24,729 nt of DNA from Candidatus Desulfaltia sp. (GCA_035529295.1 DATKWY010000170.1:1-24729), one strand, 5' to 3'. Positions 2,233-10,474 are shown, counted from the stretch's first letter. A program made the numbers and translations. The notes: a model not told the origin generated them from the sequence alone.

Positions 2233-2709
2233 ATGGTATCAGAAGTTCTGGGTGTTGCCATGTCTGAGCCCTCTTTCCGCCTCAAGGTCAGGATAGGCAA
2301 CATGGAGGTGGAGTTGGCGGGAGCCAAGGAGGAGGTGCTGGCCACCCTGGACGACCTGGGCCTCATTATGGGCAAGGTGTCCAAGGCTTTCAACGCTGAG
2401 GTTCTCCCCTCCAAGCCGGCTAAGGCCGAGGCGGGGGCCTCTATAGAGAAGTACCCAAACATCTCCAGGACCAACCAGTGTAGCGAGGCCGTGCAGAGCC
2501 TTCTGGGGTCGGAGTGGGGTAAGACGCCCCGCGCCATCGGGGAGCTGAGGAAGGCCATGGAGGCCAACGCCATATTCTTCCCCAAGACCACCCTCAGCGG
2601 CGTCTTGGTCTGGATGGTGAAGAAGGGGGTGCTCCGCAGGTGGAAGGACAACAAGCGGGGCTACCTGTACCTGCTGAACGTGGAGGAGGTCAAGGTTGCC
2701 TCGGCTTAG
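2233..2709 (+). CDS. Hypothetical protein: N-terminal beta-beta-alpha module, linker, C-terminal winged helix
   Basis: RLKVRIGNMEVELAGAKEEV module; C-terminal KTPRAIGELRKAM...PKTTLSGVLVWMVKKGVLRRWKDNKRGYLY has wHTH spacing and wing. Host-like codon usage. Alternative start ATG 2260. Confidence 0.8.
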   Translation: MVSEVLGVAMSEPSFRLKVRIGNMEVELAGAKEEVLATLDDLGLIMGKVSKAFNAEVLPSKPAKAEAGASIEKYPNISRTNQCSEAVQSLLGSEWGKTPRAIGELRKAMEANAIFFPKTTLSGVLVWMVKKGVLRRWKDNKRGYLYLLNVEEVKVASA

Positions 2710-3163
2710 GGTGAGGGTCAGGACCGGGTACGGTGAACTGGAGGTCTCAGGCGAGTCCCCGGAGGAGGTCCTGCAAGGGCTGGGCTGGCTCACCGGGGAG
2801 TTCGTGGCCGCTGTCCAGGGCAGGGTAGCCGAGGTGGCCGCGGCGGAGGCCGAGGACGTTCTGAAGGGCATCGTGAGGGTGGGCCGGGATGGGCCGACCC
2901 TGGTGACGCGGGAGGAGCTGAGCCACTACGAGGCCGTGGGCCTGATAATGTACGCCATGAGGAACCACGAGGCCACGGGCAAGGAGATAAGGGAACGGCT
3001 GGCCAGCAGCGGCAAGAAGATCACTGTGGCGGCCCGGCTCCACGAGATGAGGCGCAGGGGCCACGTGTTCCAGCCTGAGGGTAAGGGCAGCGAGTACAGG
3101 CTCACCATGAAGGGGGTCAGGTGGCTCGAGGAGGATGTCCTCCCCAGGCTCGGCCGGGACTAG
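2696..3163 (+). CDS. Hypothetical protein, apparent paralog of 2233-2709 (beta-beta-alpha plus wHTH)
   Basis: RLRVRVRTGYGELEVSGESPEEV module; ATGKEIRERL...ITVAARLHEMRRRGHVFQP...YRLTMKG wHTH. TTG start preceded by GGAGG; 14-nt overlap with the upstream gene. Confidence 0.8.
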   Translation: MPRLRVRVRTGYGELEVSGESPEEVLQGLGWLTGEFVAAVQGRVAEVAAAEAEDVLKGIVRVGRDGPTLVTREELSHYEAVGLIMYAMRNHEATGKEIRERLASSGKKITVAARLHEMRRRGHVFQPEGKGSEYRLTMKGVRWLEEDVLPRLGRD

Positions 3164-3477
3164 CCTGTCTTCTTCTTGTGCTCCTGGTAGAGCTCCATGG
3201 TGGTGACCAGCAGCATCAATGTGACGCCCTTGGCGTCCACGTTGTAGCCACCTTCCCGGAAGGGGCTCCTCTGGATCATGTCCTTCTCCAGGAGCTTGGC
3301 CACGGCCCTCTCCGTTGCCTTGGGGGTGAGAACCAGCTCGTCGCTGATCTCCTTCACCGTCATGGTCTTGCCGGTGCCGAGCATGTGGTAGAAGACCATG
3401 AACTGACTGGGCGCCCGTTGCAGCCCCAGCAGGGTCTCCATCTTCTCCTTCATCTCCCCCAGTTGCTGTTCAGACAA
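3160..3477 (-). CDS. Small winged-helix protein (5th of operon, 105 aa)
   Basis: MTVKEISDELVLTPKATERAVAKLLEKDMIQR...GGY is a TrmB/MarR-like wHTH. TTG start with GGGTGA upstream; stop overlaps the convergent gene (CTAG 3160-3163). Confidence 0.82.
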   Translation of the reverse strand: MSEQQLGEMKEKMETLLGLQRAPSQFMVFYHMLGTGKTMTVKEISDELVLTPKATERAVAKLLEKDMIQRSPFREGGYNVDAKGVTLMLLVTTMELYQEHKKKTG

Positions 3478-3488
3478 TCTACTTCACC

Positions 3489-3737
3489 CTACTTTTCCTT
3501 TGGTTGTCTATAAAGTTTCATCAAGACGTCGTAAGCGGTGGTCAGCGCCACGTATCCGTCGCTCCTGGAGTCCACCAGGCCGTCCCGCTTGAGCTCGGCG
3601 AGCCTGGCCCGGACGCTGCTGCTGTTCTCCCCCAGCTCCCTGCTGATGTCTATGGGCTTCATGGGCTGGCCCCGGAAGGTGAGGTGAACCAGTATCTTGA
3701 AGGCCGAGGTCTCGGGGTCCAGCTCATCCAGCTTCAT
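3489..3737 (-). CDS. Small winged-helix protein (4th of operon, 82 aa)
   Basis: MKPIDISRELGENSSSVRARLAELKRDGLVDSRSDGY wHTH; ATG 6 nt after the previous stop. Confidence 0.85.
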   Translation of the reverse strand: MKLDELDPETSAFKILVHLTFRGQPMKPIDISRELGENSSSVRARLAELKRDGLVDSRSDGYVALTTAYDVLMKLYRQPKEK

Positions 3738-3743
3738 GCGTGG

Positions 3744-3995
3744 TCACTCAAAGTACTTCTTCAGGAGCTCCACTAGGATGGGGCCGAGCCGGTACCTGTA
3801 TACGCCGCGGCTGACGCGTTCCACCAGCTCCTTCTTGTTGAGGTTGAAGAGTGCTATGTTCACGGCGTTGACGGTGAGGCCCAGCTTGTCGGCTATCTCC
3901 TGGCTGCTCATGGGTTCTCCGCTCTGGACCAGCATGAGGAAGACGTCCCTCTGGCTGTCCGCCCGCTTCAGGCCCTCGAGCTCCTCGGAACCCAC
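3744..3995 (-). CDS. Small winged-helix protein (3rd of operon, 83 aa)
   Basis: MSSQEIADKLGLTVNAVNIALFNLNKKELVERVSRGVY wHTH; GGAGG upstream of GTG. Confidence 0.85.
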   Translation of the reverse strand: MGSEELEGLKRADSQRDVFLMLVQSGEPMSSQEIADKLGLTVNAVNIALFNLNKKELVERVSRGVYRYRLGPILVELLKKYFE

Positions 3996-4009
3996 GACTT
4001 TTCCTCCGG

Positions 4010-4270
4010 CTACTTCTGAACCGCGTACAGGTGGGAGACGACGTCGGTGAAGGGGACGAGGCTCCTGTAGCTGCCGTCCTCCTGCTGGGCCACGTAGCCC
4101 TTGTCCAGGAGGGTGCGTAGGGCGGGCCTGACGGTGCCTGGGGCTATGCCGGTCTCGCTGCTGATGTCGCTGGGCTGACTGGGGCCCCTGAAGGCCAGGT
4201 AGACCAGGACCTTGAACTGGCTGGTTGTGGGTGAGACGTCCTTGAGGACCTTGTCCCAGGTCTCGCTCAT
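4010..4270 (-). CDS. Small winged-helix protein (2nd of operon, 86 aa)
   Basis: SQPSDISSETGIAPGTVRPALRTLLDKGYVAQQEDGSY wHTH; ATGA overlap with the upstream gene. Confidence 0.85.
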   Translation of the reverse strand: MSETWDKVLKDVSPTTSQFKVLVYLAFRGPSQPSDISSETGIAPGTVRPALRTLLDKGYVAQQEDGSYRSLVPFTDVVSHLYAVQK

Positions 4271-4512
4271 GGGGCCTTCGTCTCCAGGGCCTCGACGCGG
4301 GCCATGAGGTTGAGGAGGATGCCTGGGACGCTGGGCTCGTAGTTGCCTCTGCCTGAGCGCTCGAGGAGTCCCTCCTCGGCGAGCTTGGCGAAAGCGGCCT
4401 TTACGCTGTTGTAGTTGGCGCCCAGCTTCTCGGCCATCTCGGTGGGTCCGAGGGCCGGGTTCATGAGGAACTCCTTGAAAATGGTGTCCTTTAGGCTTTG
4501 ATTCTTGCTCAT
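4267..4512 (-). CDS. Small winged-helix protein (1st of operon, about 81 aa)
   Basis: LGPTEMAEKLGANYNSVKAAFAKLAEEGLLERSGRGNY wHTH. ATG 4512 preferred because it lies 30 nt from the TATA-like element at 4542-4550; track start is 4527. Confidence 0.85.
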   Translation of the reverse strand: MSKNQSLKDTIFKEFLMNPALGPTEMAEKLGANYNSVKAAFAKLAEEGLLERSGRGNYEPSVPGILLNLMARVEALETKAP

Positions 4513-4541
4513 CTTTCTGGTTGTCACTTCTATGTTAAGTG

Positions 4542-4678
4542 GTATTTAACTTTACTTTTGGGGTCCACATGTTTTTACATTGATAGACATAGATGGGCGA
4601 GCGTCTTAATTTCTGAGTATATAAATAAAACAGGGTTTATCAGAAATTACGCTCAGAGCGATCACAATGGTTAAATAC
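4542..4678. promoter_or_regulatory. Divergent promoter region between the wHTH operon and nurA-herA
   Basis: Identical 9-mer GTTAAATAC on the minus strand (4542-4550) and plus strand (4670-4678), facing outward in an AT-rich spacer. Confidence 0.6.
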
Positions 4679-4727
4679 GATGGAAAAAAAGTGTTGTACA
4701 TCAACGGTTTTCAACGGACGTGGTATC

Positions 4728-5786
4728 ATGGTGCTCGCGGTCAAGGAACGGGGGGAGTTGGCTGATCCCAGGCCACGGGCCGAGAGCCTCAGCCTCAGCA
4801 TAAGGAACCTGCTCCTGGCCGAGATCACGGGGGACGTGCTGACCGAGGCCCCTCTGGTCAGGGAGCTGGCGGAGCGTATCAGGCGCGAGATGGAGGTGGT
4901 GCCTCTCAGGAAGCGGGAGGCGTACACTTGGGTGGCTGGGGTGGACGCGGGGAGCCAGGTGATACCCATGGCCTCCAGGCAGTACGCGGTCATCGGCGCC
5001 CTGGTCTACACGCTTCCCCAGGGAGGCCGCTTCTACCTGCCCCCCGAGAGCATGTGCGCACCCTACTCCATGGGGGGCGGAGGCTTCGCCGGGTCGGTGA
5101 ACCTGCGCAGGGAAGCCAGGCTCTACGAGACCGCCCGGGAGTTCCTCCTAGGAGGCGGCGAGGTGGAGCTCATGCTGGTGGACGGGCCCCTGGCGCTGAG
5201 TGGCTGGTGGGGGGCCGCCGGCTGCGAGGAGGACAGGCGGCGGCTGGTGGACGCCCTGAACGGGCTGCTCCGGGTGTGCAGGGACCGGGGGGTGACGGTG
5301 GCCGGGGTGGTGAAGCGGCCCAGCGCCCGATACCTGGTTCACTACCTGGGGTTGAGCGCCGAGACGGACCTGAGTGACAGCTACCTGATGCACCAGACGC
5401 TGACGCCGGGGGAGCGCACAGACGTCTTCAGCCCCCGGACGGCGATGCGGATGGCGTCCCGAGGCAGCCAGATGATGGACGTGGTCCAGGAGCCCATTTA
5501 CGGGTTTTACTGCCGGCTGACCCGGGAGTGGGACGTCCCCCCCATCAGGGTGGACCTCCCCGCGTTCTGCCTGGGGGCCGTGGACGACGTGGCCGACTAC
5601 TGCTACGCCACCAGCATCTGGAGCGGGATACCGCTGCCCATCGTCCGGGCCGACGAGGAGGTGAAGGTGAGCCGCCGCTTCATCGGCGACGTCTTCAGCG
5701 AGATCATAAGCAGGGTGGGCCGGGAGACGGGGGACGTGTCCCCCCTGGCGCCGTACTGGGGTGAGAGTGAGTGGATGGTGGGCTGA
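4728..5786 (+). CDS. nurA: NurA-family 5'-3' nuclease
   Basis: VAGVDAGS, LMLVDGPL, GVVKRP, TDLSDSYL, PPIRVDLP and GIPLPIVRADEEVKV match the NurA motif order; immediately upstream of a HerA ATPase. ATG 4728 preferred over 4680. Confidence 0.85.
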   Translation: MVLAVKERGELADPRPRAESLSLSIRNLLLAEITGDVLTEAPLVRELAERIRREMEVVPLRKREAYTWVAGVDAGSQVIPMASRQYAVIGALVYTLPQGGRFYLPPESMCAPYSMGGGGFAGSVNLRREARLYETAREFLLGGGEVELMLVDGPLALSGWWGAAGCEEDRRRLVDALNGLLRVCRDRGVTVAGVVKRPSARYLVHYLGLSAETDLSDSYLMHQTLTPGERTDVFSPRTAMRMASRGSQMMDVVQEPIYGFYCRLTREWDVPPIRVDLPAFCLGAVDDVADYCYATSIWSGIPLPIVRADEEVKVSRRFIGDVFSEIISRVGRETGDVSPLAPYWGESEWMVG

Positions 5787-7291
5787 GAGTCGGGCACACG
5801 TACAGCGCCACGGGCGAGTACGGCATCAGCGAGATCACTGTGCTGCTACTCAGGGGCTTGGAGCTGGCCAAGGGCGACTTAGTCTTCATTGAGCACCCCA
5901 AGAACGGGTGCCCCGTGGTGTACCAGGTGACCCGGGTGTACCCCCACAAACGGGTCAGGGAGTACGAAGAGGCCCTCCTCAGGGACGGCAGGATCATCAA
6001 CGACTTTGAGGATAGTACGCTGCACGCTCAGGCTTACCAGTGGGGGTGGATGGACGAGGGGGGCAGCCTCAGGCCACTAAGATACCCTCTTCAGCCTAAC
6101 ACGCCCGTGTACATGGCTGAGAGGGACGTCATCGCCCAGTTCACCAAGCCCAGCGGAGACTGGAGGATACTGCTGGGGACGGACCCAGGCACCGACCTGG
6201 ACGTGGAGCTGGGGATATACAGCTTGATCCGGCAGAGCTGCCTAATCTGCGGGGCCGTGGGGACGGGGAAGACCACCACGGCTGTATCCATGGTGGCCCG
6301 GGCCGCGACGGCTGACCCTCCGGTCCGCTTCTTCATAGTGGACAAGGACGGGGAGTACAGCAGCCTCCAGGAGAGACTGGGCCCGGACAGGGTGCTCCGG
6401 GTGCCCTGGAGCAGATTCTTCGAGCCCGGGGGCATCCCCTGGGAGGACTACGTGTCGGAGTTCGGGTGGCAGAAGACCTGGTGGAACGCCAAGATACTCA
6501 TCCACGCCTTGAAGATTCTGTACGCGCAGCAGGCAACGGTGACCAAGGCGAACCTGCGCCGGGCACTGGATCAGGTTCACCCGGAGAGGCTGGGCTTCAA
6601 CAAGAAGCCGGAGGAGTTCGAGGCGTACCGGATGCAGGTGGTGAACAGTGTGGGCACCAGCCGGCTGATCCCGGACGGGGATATGGAGCCCCTGGACCCG
6701 GTGGAGCTGCTCCGGGACAGGCACGTGGTGATCATGGACCTTAGCGCCGGGAAGGACACCTGGGACCAGAAGCACCTGGTGGTGGCCCAGGTTCTGCGCC
6801 GCATCTTCGGGGAGGCCCTGGAGAACAGGAAGTTCGGGTGCATCATACTGCTGGAGGAGGCCATGTACTACGCTCCCCAGAGGGGGGTCTTCGAGATCGG
6901 TGAGAAGGAGAACCGGGGCAAGCTGCTGGGGGTCATCAAGGAGATCGCGACTAATGGCGGCAGGAACGGCGTGGGGCTGTGGGCGGTGACCCAGAGGCTG
7001 AGCACCGTGGAGAAGACCGTGGTGACCCAGTGCGCCAACAACGTGATCTGCCACAGCCTGGAGGACGTGGACAAGGCCAGGATGGCTGAGATCATGGGAG
7101 CCAAGTTCGCGGAGCTCATAGGCGACCTCCCGCCGGGGGAAGCCATAGTGAAGGGGACGGCGCTCAGATGCAGGTTCCCCCTCTGGGTGAAGGTGCTGCC
7201 TGAGGTGTACCCAGCTAGCAGCTTGAGCACGCCCATGAGCAGGTTCATCCACATGGAGGCTGCGGGTCGGGAGCAGGTGGCCGACGACTAA
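5771..7291 (+). CDS. herA: HerA-like ATPase/helicase (FtsK-HerA superfamily) with N-terminal HAS-barrel-like region
   Basis: Walker A GAVGTGKTT, FIVDKDGEY, Walker B IILLEEA, GGRNGVGLWAVTQR, TQCANNVI and C-terminal DLPPGEAIVKG; overlaps nurA by 16 nt. Confidence 0.88.
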   Translation: MDGGLRVGHTYSATGEYGISEITVLLLRGLELAKGDLVFIEHPKNGCPVVYQVTRVYPHKRVREYEEALLRDGRIINDFEDSTLHAQAYQWGWMDEGGSLRPLRYPLQPNTPVYMAERDVIAQFTKPSGDWRILLGTDPGTDLDVELGIYSLIRQSCLICGAVGTGKTTTAVSMVARAATADPPVRFFIVDKDGEYSSLQERLGPDRVLRVPWSRFFEPGGIPWEDYVSEFGWQKTWWNAKILIHALKILYAQQATVTKANLRRALDQVHPERLGFNKKPEEFEAYRMQVVNSVGTSRLIPDGDMEPLDPVELLRDRHVVIMDLSAGKDTWDQKHLVVAQVLRRIFGEALENRKFGCIILLEEAMYYAPQRGVFEIGEKENRGKLLGVIKEIATNGGRNGVGLWAVTQRLSTVEKTVVTQCANNVICHSLEDVDKARMAEIMGAKFAELIGDLPPGEAIVKGTALRCRFPLWVKVLPEVYPASSLSTPMSRFIHMEAAGREQVADD

Positions 7292-7320
7292 TTAAGCTGC
7301 TGGGTGCTTCAATTAAGCTG
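7290..7320 (+). repeat. 10-bp direct repeat AATTAAGCTG (7290-7299, 7311-7320)
   Basis: Two exact copies separated by 11 nt between the herA stop and the Nudix ATG. Confidence 0.85.
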
Positions 7321-7321
7321 T

Positions 7322-7753
7322 ATGTCTGGCAGGCTTTACCCTGAGAGGCCCATCGTGGGGGTGGGTGTCCTCATCGAGCGGGACGGCAAGTTTCTGCTCA
7401 TCAGGAGGGGCGCTGAGCCTGACGCTGGGCTGTGGACGGTGCCGGGAGGCCTGGTGGAGGTGGGTGAGAGGGTCAGGGACGCGGCGGTGCGGGAGGCGCT
7501 GGAGGAGACGGGGCTCCGGGTGGAGGTGGTGGACAGGATCGGCGTGGTGGACAAGATCGTCAGGGACGACGAGGGGCGGGTCCGGTACCACTTCATCATC
7601 GTCCAGTTGTTGGCCAGGGTCCTGGGGGGTGAGGCCGTGGCCATGGACGACGCACTGGAGGCACGGTGGGTGGAGCTGGCAGATTTCTCGGGGTACGACC
7701 TGACGCCTTCCTTCAGGGAGTTTCTGAGGGAGATAGGGTTATACCCCGTGTAA
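7322..7753 (+). CDS. Nudix hydrolase (ADP-ribose pyrophosphatase-like)
   Basis: Nudix box [24 protein letters not shown]; [11 protein letters not shown]-terminus. ATG at 7322. Confidence 0.92.
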
Positions 7754-7774: not shown

Positions 7775-7861
7775 CGTAAACGTAAAATGATTTACGTTTA
7801 CCTGTATTTTCATATGAGCGTACAGCTGCTGATAAACGCCCTCATCTACGCCTCCATGCTG
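7775..7861 (+). repeat. Copy 1 of an 87-bp direct repeat: promoter plus first 16 codons of the livH-like gene (truncated)
   Basis: 84/87 identical to 9512-9598, with the last 64 nt identical; contains ATG 7814 MSVQLLINALIYASML and then diverges. Confidence 0.95.
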
Positions 7862-7895
7862 GTGCAACACGTCAGGCGCGTCGCATAGAGCACTG

Positions 7896-8107
7896 ATGTG
7901 CAAAAAAGGTAGGGGGTATCATTTTATGGCGGTTTTTTCAGTCATAAAACGAGTAAACCTATACCCGCAACGCCGACGAGACCTGGGGACCATGTGTGAA
8001 AAAACATAGGGGGGTATCGTATAATGGAGAATATTTTTATTAATACAAGAATCTCGTTGAGGCTCACGAAGCTTACGAGGCGGGGCGCATATGCAAAAAG
8101 GTAGGGG
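7896..8107 (+). repeat. Three imperfect copies of ATRTG..AAAAA..TAGGGG at about 96-bp spacing
   Basis: atgtgcaaaaaaggtagggggtatc (7896), atgtgtgaaaaaacataggggggtatc (7992), atatgcaaaaaggtagggg (8089); TAGGGG at 7910, 8007 and 8102. Confidence 0.7.
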
Positions 8108-8167
8108 CGCGCTCGCTGTCATGACGCGTTAAGACCTATGGAGTTGTTAATTCCAAGTACGCTGAAT

Positions 8168-8195
8168 GGTGCGCATAATCTAATTTAATTAAATG
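8168..8195 (+). other. dif-like site
   Basis: GGTGCGCATAA-TCTAAT-TTAATTAAATG versus E. coli dif GGTGCGCATAA-TGTATA-TTATGTTAAAT; left arm matches 11/11. Confidence 0.3.
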
Positions 8196-8293
8196 CAATA
8201 ATCCATATTTTTATCCATTTTTTTTTGTCTATATGTGCTCGTGTAGTAATGGATTGGAGTTGTAATGGAAAAATTGGTGAGTTTTTGTTGATT

Positions 8294-9406
8294 TTATGTT
8301 CTCATTGAGACTTCAACTGGAAGGGAATCGATGTCTCCAAACATGAAATGCGCCTTCAAATCAGAGTCTTCAAGACACTCTAACTTTTTCTCAGGGCTAT
8401 TGTAGAACAATTTAAAGTTGATCCTGGTATCTACGAAGCCTTGGCCTAGGAACTTGCTCCACATCGGATGTTTATTAATGCAGGCAGCGAGAACAGTGTT
8501 TACATCGTTGCTGTCAAAGTATTTTTGAGCGTTTGATAAGAGTGCGTCTGCTGCGTCCTCTCTTCCCTTCAATGTGATGAGGTCAACTACGAAGCCGACT
8601 GGGTAGTCCTCACGATATCTGTTTATCCGGTTGACACAGTATCCGATGATCTCAGAGCCGTCTTTGGCTAGGTTGACGTCGAAATCTCCTCCCCTTTTGT
8701 CACAGTATCGCCAATTTAGGTAACTTTCTCTTCTTTCTACGATGAAATCGTAATCGTTTTTTACTTTCTCCCAGAATGCGTCAATTTCCTGTTTAAAGGA
8801 GTCGATTTTTACTACTTCGACATCGGTTTTAGCTTGACTTCCTCTCACTATATTCCGCATATCCTGGAGCTGTTTAACGACTGTGTACCCGATTTTCATT
8901 ATATTTGGGTGGTCAACGGCTATTGCATTTAACTGCTTATCTATGTCTTTCACTTGCACCAATACGGAGACTGAGACTGGAAACTCGGGTAATTTCCCAG
9001 TGTAACTTTTGATTATATGTGGGTTCCGTGTGACAAAATAGGTGCAAGGCGTATCCCTCTCTAATCTTAGTTTCATTGAAAGTTTCAATAATCTGTTTGA
9101 GATACCCATTCTACGGTAATCGGGGTGTACAGCCATATCTCCTGCGTAGCCCCAATGTATGATTTCCCCGCATACTTTGACAGGTACAATGTATAGCTGT
9201 CCAGTCCCAACGACTCTTTCACTGTGTTTCGCTACTACAACCAGGATTTTTCTCAAGTTATTTTCTAGATACTTCCATTTCCAGTGTTCTAACGCAGAGC
9301 ATTCAAGATCAATGCGAGGCCAATCACCGTAAACATCCTGTAAGAGAGGTATAATCTGTTTTTCATCTCCAACTTTATACTCATCGACTGTTATCTCATC
9401 AGACAA
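8294..9406 (-). CDS. GNAT-family N-acetyltransferase (about 370 aa, probably tandem GNAT folds), low GC
   Basis: GYAGDMAVHPDYRRMGISNRL acetyl-CoA-binding motif A; FIVERRESYLNWRY; second fold with GYCVNRI and VVDLI. Probable TTG start at 9406 (LSDEITVDEY); the longer track ORF is an antisense extension. Confidence 0.85.
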   Translation of the reverse strand: MSDEITVDEYKVGDEKQIIPLLQDVYGDWPRIDLECSALEHWKWKYLENNLRKILVVVAKHSERVVGTGQLYIVPVKVCGEIIHWGYAGDMAVHPDYRRMGISNRLLKLSMKLRLERDTPCTYFVTRNPHIIKSYTGKLPEFPVSVSVLVQVKDIDKQLNAIAVDHPNIMKIGYTVVKQLQDMRNIVRGSQAKTDVEVVKIDSFKQEIDAFWEKVKNDYDFIVERRESYLNWRYCDKRGGDFDVNLAKDGSEIIGYCVNRINRYREDYPVGFVVDLITLKGREDAADALLSNAQKYFDSNDVNTVLAACINKHPMWSKFLGQGFVDTRINFKLFYNSPEKKLECLEDSDLKAHFMFGDIDSLPVEVSMRT

Positions 9407-9511
9407 TGCAGCAAAATATTCGTTTCTAAATACATAAGTTGAACGATGAGGCGCGCGTACCAGGGACCAGAGAGCAGCCAAAGCAATCAGAGACTGGGTA
9501 CAAAAGCGTCT

Positions 9512-9598
9512 CGTAAACGTTAAATGGTTTACGGTTACCTGTATTTTCATATGAGCGTACAGCTGCTGATAAACGCCCTCATCTACGCCTCCATGCTG
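9512..9598 (+). repeat. Copy 2 of the 87-bp direct repeat; includes a probable bidirectional promoter and the livH-like start
   Basis: 84/87 identity with 7775-7861; GTTAAAT lies about 30 nt before ATG 9551. Confidence 0.95.
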
Positions 9599-10474
9599 AT
9601 GCTCATAGCTGAGGCCCACACGTTGACGTACCTGACAGCGGACGCCTTCAACTTCACCGTGGGGCCCATGGCAGCTATCGGCGCCTACGTGGGGTTCACA
9701 TGGACCAAGATACTGGGGCTGCAGCTTTACCTGGGGCTCCCTGTTGCGTTTACGGTCTGCAGCCTGGTGGGATTCCTGTGCTGTGTACTGGTTGTTGAGC
9801 CTCTGCTGAGGAGAGGTCGGGGGCCTGTGCTGGTGACCCTTGCTCTCATCGGGACCGGGATTCTGCTCACCGGTCTCACGCAGATTTATGCGCGGTGGCT
9901 GCTGTACGCCTACAGTATATGGACTAGCAACTTCCTCTTGAAGGCGTACGACTTCGCCGTGGGGTGGGTCCCCGGCGTCTTCATAGTGTCCACAATCCTG
10001 GCCCTGACCTCGGTCCTGCTCCTTGAGCGTATGCTCCACGGAACCCTGTTCGGCGCCTCCCTGAGGGCCGTGGTGGAGAACGTTGACCTGGCCATGGTGC
10101 AGGGCGTCAACCCGGCCCGAGTCAGGTGGGTGTCTTGGACTCTTGCTGGGGGCCTGGCGGGGCTGGCCGGGGCCTACGGGAGTATGTGGTTTAGGTCGAG
10201 CCTGGATATGGGGCCTGTTCTTATGACGGGGATTCTGGCCTCTTGTCTGCTGGGCGGTGTGGATAGCCTGAGGGGAGCCGCAATAGGCGGGCTGCTTCAG
10301 GGCGTATTTGAGATATTTCTAGTTGTCGGGGGTCAGCGGGTGATCGGGGTCGGGGTGGGGGAGGACAGGCCGCTGGTGCCCATAGCCATGATAGCCCTGG
10401 CTATGTACTTCAGGCCACAGGGGTTGCTAGGAGCTGACCCGTCTGGGCGCCAGAAAAGACGGGTCTCAAGGTGA
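9551..10474 (+). CDS. Branched-chain amino acid ABC transporter permease (LivH-like), orphan
   Basis: FNFTVGPMAAIGAY, FGASLRAVVENVDLAMVQGVNP, LAGGLAGLAG and LLGGVDSLRGAAIGGLL; multiple TM segments. Confidence 0.88.
   Translation: MSVQLLINALIYASMLMLIAEAHTLTYLTADAFNFTVGPMAAIGAYVGFTWTKILGLQLYLGLPVAFTVCSLVGFLCCVLVVEPLLRRGRGPVLVTLALIGTGILLTGLTQIYARWLLYAYSIWTSNFLLKAYDFAVGWVPGVFIVSTILALTSVLLLERMLHGTLFGASLRAVVENVDLAMVQGVNPARVRWVSWTLAGGLAGLAGAYGSMWFRSSLDMGPVLMTGILASCLLGGVDSLRGAAIGGLLQGVFEIFLVVGGQRVIGVGVGEDRPLVPIAMIALAMYFRPQGLLGADPSGRQKRRVSR

Follow-up and report, generated by a model that had tools for sequence, protein, structure and literature searches.

What do seven winged-helix genes have to do with the NurA nuclease and the HerA ATPase that are encoded beside them? 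The question is raised by positions 2233-7753 of contig C170 (DATKWY010000170.1, deposited under Candidatus Desulfaltia sp., GCA_035529295.1), a stretch of 24,729 nt which we refer to as the window and which belongs to a metagenome-assembled genome (MAG) of 1.71 Mb (78% complete, contamination estimate 5%, genome GC 0.594), assigned to Bathyarchaeia by the names that close homologs of its HerA carry. Listing of open reading frames (ORFs) and Pfam scans of the window established the layout that a previous sequence-only reading had described, with all of its features present: a winged-helix pair on the + strand (wA1 and wA2) converges on a five-gene winged-helix array on the - strand (wB5 to wB1), which in turn diverges from nurA, herA and a nudix gene (Table 1). 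The overlap of the wA2 and wB5 stop codons as CTAG, claimed in the same reading, was found at 3160-3163; wB1 and wB2 overlap by 4 nt, and the start of HerA overlaps the end of NurA by 16 nt. All seven genes do encode winged-helix proteins, but these belong to two unrelated-looking families with different histories, wA and wB. That both families are dedicated functionally to this NurA-HerA lineage is well supported. As to how they serve it, we favour, with a probability of about one half, a split role in which wA targets or loads the enzymes and wB controls their promoters.

The linkage of the winged-helix genes to NurA-HerA in relatives, which had been put forward as a check, turned out to be strongly conserved. 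A gene-neighbourhood survey of 52 loci, fetched around orthologs of the window HerA, sampled the window genus together with nine or more additional genera from the same family, and three more families belonging to the order (f1-f4 denote the families of this order, f7 and f18 its sister families). Throughout, the order GatE, wA1 and wA2, facing wB5, wB4, wB3, wB2 and wB1, which are followed divergently by NurA and HerA, is essentially invariant, and the orthology is one-to-one in the same order across the 52 loci from four families, with wA1 and wB5 orthologs in 45 loci. Exceptions were contig ends, family f3, which has no wA alongside, and one genome lacking wA2. The position of the locus is likewise fixed, between GatE and pyrB. 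Members of the HerA clade (at least 57% identity) were found in 81 of 301 genomes of the class, from families f1-f4, f7 and f18, and f5 holds a relative at 35%. wB3 was detected in 75 of these 301 Bathyarchaeia genomes, all from f1-f4, and adjoins HerA wherever both match one contig, except in the genome G153. There, wB and NurA-HerA seem to lie 600 kb from each other; with runs of N at both break points, we rejected this separation as a scaffolding artefact. The GC of the locus (0.59-0.65, compared with 0.594 for the genome) and its order-wide vertical inheritance argue against a recent foreign origin. The locus is a chromosomal module that one Bathyarchaeia order has inherited vertically, and not a mobile or defence island, and this lineage-wide inheritance favours a housekeeping role. 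Neither of the two circumstances named beforehand as speaking against a joint system was found: the genes are not unlinked in most relatives, and the pair is not the sole, canonical NurA-HerA of its genome.

Described as an orphan by the sequence-only reading, the window NurA-HerA is a second, divergent pair, because a canonical nurA-herA-mre11-rad50 operon sits on other contigs of the same genome. On C186 there is a second NurA gene; C201 holds the second HerA gene with mre11 and rad50 behind it. At its 5′ end, C201 carries an ORF with 94% identity to the C-terminal portion of the NurA on C186; therefore, both contigs represent one canonical operon, which is intact in the same-genus relative G005 (L134). 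The duplicated segment itself (C186, 1-1124; C201, 1-798), present as 94%-identical copies of one canonical NurA segment, points to strain heterogeneity or to a collapsed assembly break within the bin. Neither mre11 nor rad50 was found in the window, and within this HerA lineage a Mre11-like gene follows HerA only in families f7 and f9. The window HerA is 22% identical to the canonical HerA of the same genome, and the two NurA proteins share 29% identity over a 101-residue local match. Against the canonical NCBIfam equivalogs HerA_Thermprot and helicase_HerA, the window HerA scored 41 and 36 bits, far below the respective cut-offs of 800 and 970. The HerA tree joins the window clade and the wA-linked HerAs of other Bathyarchaeia as sister groups (support 100/98), with the Mre11-Rad50-linked HerAs apart from both and the Caldarchaeum/Nitrososphaerales group on a very long branch. 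Among 1.84 billion representative proteins, no more than 19 sequences reached E 1e-30; the clade is therefore isolated. Its closest relatives outside (P0125 and P0131, 30-35% identity) belong to loci with NurA-HerA alone or with an unrelated context. As side observations, an extra HerA-like gene between the wA quartet and NurA-HerA-Mre11 of family f9 (L129:6733-8283, -) groups in the tree with the divergent Caldarchaeum/Nitrososphaerales HerAs, and a wA-linked HerA from another family of the phylum (G336, L097:7133-10288, +) carries an intein with a LAGLIDADG domain just before the DUF87 match, inside the ATPase part.

Both enzymes are probably active, because their catalytic motifs and acidic residues are conserved. 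NurA belongs to its family by a PF09376 match over residues 118-330 (cut-off 21), and among 23 orthologs D73, E129, D152, K196 and D217 are invariant and D309 is nearly so. The acidic ones are candidates for the metal-binding residues of an RNase H-like active site; sequence and profile searches of the PDB matched no NurA structure. HerA is placed in the HerA/FtsK-HerA superfamily of ATPases by its DUF87 match (cut-off 23.2) and by its Walker A, Walker B and arginine-finger-type motifs; its motifs, Walker A LICGxVGxGKTTT, Walker B LEEA, ATNGGRNG and VTQRL, are invariant or near-invariant in 53 sequences.

Of the two partner families, wA is much the older and is phylum-wide. By hhalign, wA1 and wA2 align as paralogs over 136 columns (E 7e-9); they returned no Pfam match, nor did wA1 match any NCBIfam family. 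The AlphaFold2 model of wA1 comprises strands at residues 15-30 and helices at 32-52 (predicted local distance difference test, pLDDT, about 65-70 over 15-52), a disordered linker at 55-75 and a C-terminal winged helix at 80-150 with pLDDT above 90. In Foldseek searches, this winged helix resembled the DNA-binding domains of Fur, MarR, BlaI and PadR, all generic matches, the N-terminal domain of a beta-hairpin and two helices was unmatched, and a search of the ESM Atlas gave matches only to unnamed Bathyarchaeota clusters. The wA2 profile matches 101 of 251 genomes sampled across the phylum. The family is recognised by its three-part build together with adjacency to NurA-HerA, which was verified in nine further lineages. 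In the sister families f7 and f18, wB is missing and NurA-HerA is immediately preceded by three or four wA-type genes; f7 adds the Mre11-like gene; the operons of f5, f9 and f10 consist of two or three wA2-type genes, wA1, NurA and HerA. Furthermore, wA adjoins NurA-HerA in Caldarchaeum subterraneum, in many Nitrososphaera, Nitrosocosmicus and Nitrososphaeraceae MAGs and in three more families of the phylum, with two to four paralogs per locus in other Bathyarchaeia, Caldarchaeum and Nitrososphaerales.

Further evidence of linkage is a Rosetta-stone fusion, a protein of 466 amino acids (L100:3773-5173, -; P0272/P0273) in which a HerA-type ATPase core and a coiled coil are followed by a wA2-type C-terminus (E 4e-24); it occurs in two 90%-identity clusters on seven contigs. 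Related ATPases of Methanomethylicota (560-590 amino acids) carry other C-termini. In a nanoarchaeotal protein of 652 amino acids (P0287), a TrmB-type winged helix at the N-terminus is fused to a HerA domain with a match to the window HerA profile at E 6e-29. In addition, the spacers upstream of NurA in two distant lineages (L039:10591-10664 and L097:5916-5987) contain palindromes of the TGAACAA/TTGTTCA type (of 22 bp in L097). These differ from the boxes of the window and are possible wA operators.

The wB proteins are small, single-domain and confined to the order. At fold level, wB2, wB3, wB4 and wB5 reach winged-helix cut-offs in Pfam (TrmB 25.6 for wB2 and wB3, MarR_2 27 for wB2 and wB5, HTH_IclR 22 for wB4), with no subfamily assigned; wB1 remains below them and is related to the other wB proteins by hhalign (E 4e-6 to 7e-9). 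Profile comparison pairs wB2 with wB4 (E 2e-24) and wB3 with wB5 (E 2e-16) and places wB1 nearest to wB3 and also wB5, resulting in a gene order A-B-A-B-A. Similarity between wA and wB profiles is weak. Each wB ortholog group retains its own recognition-helix motif. The best NCBIfam matches of wB3 and wB5 are Lrs14/Sta1, at 24-27 bits (24-25 for wB5) compared with cut-offs of 80-90, which is below family membership.

Between wB1 and NurA lies a spacer of 215 bp that is conserved across the order, with blocks kept in the loci of 36 relatives. On its wB side, the box TTAACTTTACTTTTGG (4546-4561) overlaps GTATTTAAC at 4542-4550; on the NurA side, GTTAAATAC (4670-4678) is followed by GGAAAAAAAGTGTTGTA (4682-4698), which across the order corresponds to a TATA-like box followed by AGAAAAAAAGTGTTGTA. 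The two identical outward-facing elements noticed in the sequence-only reading are real, GTTAAATAC standing at 4670-4678 (+) and 4542-4550 (-), but their identity is confined to the window species and its closest relative. Because the 9-mers of other relatives read TTATTAAC and TTTAAATA, these boxes are TATA-box-like promoter elements and not a shared operator; GTTAAATAC occurs six times in the 1.71-Mb genome, two of the copies being those in the spacer. Between the two boxes, a 56-bp unit (4599-4654) forms an inverted repeat, GAGC-N6-ATTTC...TATATAAATAAAA...GAAAT-N3-GCTC, with TATATAAATAAAA at its centre. It has one fixed length in 33 of 35 distinct sequences, and 82% of the cells in its arms pair, compared with 34-42% when the arms are slid against each other. 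We considered an RNA hairpin and rejected it: about one sequence in three has a broken inner arm, the TATA box would lie in the "loop", and covariation is limited to two positions. For the same reasons, we read the control region as a dedicated, predicted protein-binding operator array around the promoters and not as RNA. A regulon search found no control-region box recurring elsewhere in the 78%-complete genome.

Metatranscriptome contigs from four runs of four studies, 90-99% identical to the window, cover 2384-4502, i.e., wA and above all wB. NurA-HerA is almost bare of them, with three small pieces from one run; such uneven coverage argues against DNA carry-over.

How the parts might work together can be outlined from these results. 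The enzymatic core consists of the NurA nuclease and the HerA DNA translocase, an old lineage distinct from the Mre11-Rad50-linked pair. The wA proteins may be accessory subunits that recognise DNA and thereby target the motor, load it or gate its access to DNA, much like the gamma domain of FtsK, a winged helix, if it acted in trans; the reasons for this assignment are their place in NurA-HerA operons across the phylum and the HerA-wA2 fusion. The proteins wB1-wB5 would assemble into hetero-oligomers and bind the control region of fixed geometry that separates the two operons, autoregulate and hold nurA-herA low until a signal arrives, probably DNA damage or a cell-cycle cue. Here, the controller role is suggested by the divergent layout, the unique operator of fixed geometry and the RNA pattern; for wB at least, regulation agrees with the data no less than a structural function does. 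We infer DNA binding by the winged-helix proteins, their hetero-oligomers, repression, loading and the cellular process served.

Several points weigh against this split role. Genes of the wA family in the genomes G305 and G151 are not beside any detectable NurA. The HerA-wA2 fusion is limited to one narrow lineage, and its HerA-like ATPase lacks the N-terminal barrel. A complex prediction for wA1 and wA2 gave 0.02 compared with a mark of 0.32, a value that in itself speaks neither for nor against binding. The RNA data are assembled contigs from unstranded look-ups and provide neither levels nor transcript starts. Moreover, both the palindromes upstream of NurA in L039 and L097 and the weak MarR, TrmB and Lrs14 likeness would fit plain transcription factors equally well. 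All seven winged-helix proteins could accordingly be ordinary regulators that switch nurA-herA and themselves, e.g., as damage-responsive repressors, and stay outside the DNA-processing reaction. We regard this as possible although unlikely: it would explain the conserved, genome-unique, operator-like inverted repeat around a TATA box in the shared spacer, those palindromes, the MarR, TrmB and IclR matches besides the weak Lrs14 and Sta1 ones, and the detection of wB RNA where NurA-HerA RNA is nearly absent. However, two to four wA plus five wB proteins for one operon are far more than known autoregulatory circuits need, and their one-to-one orthology was kept over order- to phylum-level divergence. 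The wA genes are, in addition, translationally coupled to each other and lie within the NurA-HerA operon in many lineages, and a wA2-type domain has been fused to a HerA-type ATPase. A different use of the same fusion, of the invariant gene order and number and of the A-B-A-B-A pattern, which suggests hetero-oligomers, would be the strong form of the idea in the sequence-only reading, one stable holo-complex of the seven proteins with NurA-HerA, i.e., a heteromeric DNA-coating or DNA-sensing scaffold carrying the resection machine. This we consider improbable, as wA and wB differ in age and distribution (the sister families have no wB and f3 no adjacent wA), and as wB and NurA-HerA are divergently transcribed with very unequal RNA, which is unlike stoichiometric subunits.

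It is about equally improbable that wB1-wB5 are general nucleoid-associated proteins of the Lrs14 or Sso10a kind, which merely share the promoter region of NurA-HerA, the link of wA being a separate matter. The Lrs14/Sta1 regulators and nucleoid proteins of Sulfolobales (PMC12529230) are, like wB, single-domain winged-helix proteins of about 80-105 amino acids with flanking helices, wB3 and wB5 weakly resemble them, and no other part of the locus is represented as well as wB in the four metatranscriptomes. Yet wB consists of five paralogs in fixed order at one Bathyarchaeia locus, below the membership cut-offs of these families; its strict, order-wide adjacency to NurA-HerA comes with a co-conserved control region, and a distinct recognition-helix motif per paralog suggests specific and not generic binding. 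A replacement of histones by wB was ruled out: histone-fold genes occur throughout the class, and within the family 67 of 70 genomes have them; there is therefore no chromatin gap for wB to fill in this order. A role in anti-virus defence, raised in the sequence-only reading, is poorly supported, and a system of the HerA-plus-effector type with winged-helix sensors appears very improbable. Sir2-HerA and DUF4297-HerA also combine a HerA-family ATPase with a nuclease-type partner outside the Mre11-Rad50 context, the C-terminal half of the window HerA partially matches defence HerA models (PADLOC, 63 bits; NCBIfam HerA_antiphage, 53.6 bits), and the Nudix protein matches the PADLOC candidate family PDC-S07. 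In contrast, the HerA_antiphage cut-off is 800 and no full-length match was obtained, NurA has no PADLOC match, and the window encodes no Sir2 or DUF4297 effector. The locus is inherited vertically across the order at a fixed place between GatE and pyrB, its distribution is not patchy, mobile-element genes are absent, and the same HerA lineage adjoins a Mre11-like gene in relatives.

A last alternative goes further than the split role. HerA and FtsK belong to one ATPase superfamily, and FtsK gamma is a winged-helix domain that reads an 8-bp polar motif (FtsK-orienting polar sequence, KOPS) and thereby loads and orients the hexamer. In both cases a winged-helix module is tied to a motor, several winged helices may act per loading, and in one lineage the C-terminus of a HerA-type ATPase bears a fused winged helix of the wA2 type. 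The winged helices of the window, however, are separate polypeptides, those of wA with an extra N-terminal domain, and the analogy is a mechanistic one only. We consider it doubtful that the wA paralogs, assisted in this order by those of wB, assemble into a hetero-oligomer that reads particular sequences or DNA structures of the chromosome and loads and orients HerA-NurA, a trans-acting archaeal counterpart of FtsK-gamma/KOPS whose task would be not break repair but chromosome segregation, dimer resolution or programmed DNA processing. If it were so, a previously unseen sequence-guided translocase-nuclease system would be common to Bathyarchaeia, Caldarchaeales and the ammonia-oxidising Nitrososphaerales.

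The coordinates of the individual features are listed in Table 1. Besides the probable wA1 start given there, two gene starts differ from simple ORF calls. The wB1 ORF as called spans 4267-4527 with a GTG start at 4527, whereas the family consensus begins at the methionine of ATG 4512; the latter is most likely the start, because the GTG is too near the TATA-like box. For NurA, comparison with relatives places the start at ATG 4728 and not at 4680, because the first 16 "codons" of the longer form are conserved promoter DNA with stop codons in relatives. The Nudix gene, which the sequence-only reading had counted as part of the system, does follow HerA in the window and in most relatives with enough sequence. 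Its linkage is loose, though, often with 0.8-3 kb in between, and no Nudix gene was found in the f3 and f7 loci; it is probably not a core part. Farther downstream, between Nudix and a branched-chain amino-acid permease gene, an insertion-like stretch (7775-10039) with a GC of 0.41-0.49, compared with about 0.60 for the genome, encodes a 581-amino-acid ORF with a GNAT acetyltransferase domain. Scanning the window with Rfam and for tRNA genes gave no matches.

Table 1. Features of the winged-helix/NurA-HerA locus in the window (coordinates counted from the first nucleotide of the contig)
Feature	Coordinates	Strand	Description
wA1	2233-2709	+	No Pfam/NCBIfam family; start probably Met10, ATG 2260 (conserved)
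wA2	2696-3163	+	wA1 paralog with the same three-part build; overlaps the wA1 end
wB5	3160-3477	-	105 amino acids; single-domain winged helix, A-type; last gene of the wB operon; MarR_2 27.2 bits
wB4	3489-3737	-	82 amino acids; winged helix, B-type; HTH_IclR 23.4 bits
wB3	3744-3995	-	83 amino acids; winged helix, A-type; best conserved of the five wB; TrmB 26.7 bits
wB2	4010-4270	-	86 amino acids; winged helix, B-type; TrmB 28.6, MarR_2 28.5, HTH_IclR 28.1 bits
wB1	4267-4512	-	81 amino acids; winged helix, A-type; first gene of the wB operon; weak HTH_Crp_2 and GntR matches
Divergent control region	4513-4727		Three parts: wB-side box, 56-bp unit, NurA-side box
NurA-family nuclease	4728-5786	+	352 amino acids; divergent; PF09376 53.4 bits
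HerA-family hexameric ATPase/translocase	5771-7291	+	506 amino acids; non-canonical lineage; DUF87 43.5 bits
Nudix hydrolase	7304-7753	+	PF00293 80 bits; loosely associated

The cellular role of HerA-NurA is still debated, and the complex has been studied almost only in the context of Mre11-Rad50. The canonical systems of Sulfolobus, Pyrococcus and Thermococcus (herA-mre11-rad50-nurA) share with the window locus the two enzyme families, the overlapping nurA-herA genes and the conserved ATPase motifs and acidic NurA residues, but the window pair forms a separate lineage in the tree, lacks mre11 and rad50 and is accompanied by wA-type genes and wB. Two reviews cover this canonical archaeal HerA-NurA end-resection complex, which is encoded together with mre11-rad50 (PMC13748450, PMC7690668). 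The sequence-only reading knew of no described system with the architecture found here, and our literature search agrees: a full-text search found no description of winged-helix partners of NurA-HerA, and the word "winged" did not turn up in a keyword search of a 2026 NurA review.

As the locus shows, a second, old NurA-HerA lineage with DNA-binding protein families of its own persists in a large part of Thermoproteota. Its holders include Bathyarchaeia, which are among the most abundant archaea in sediments, and relatives of cultivable ammonia oxidisers. The parts are small, soluble-looking and suited to biochemistry. If the winged-helix proteins were regulators only, they would constitute an unusually elaborate circuit, with five to seven paralogs devoted to one operon and a rigid 56-bp operator. 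If they do target or gate the motor, no specificity factors dedicated to a HerA machine would have preceded them, and they would offer a handle on its cellular role.

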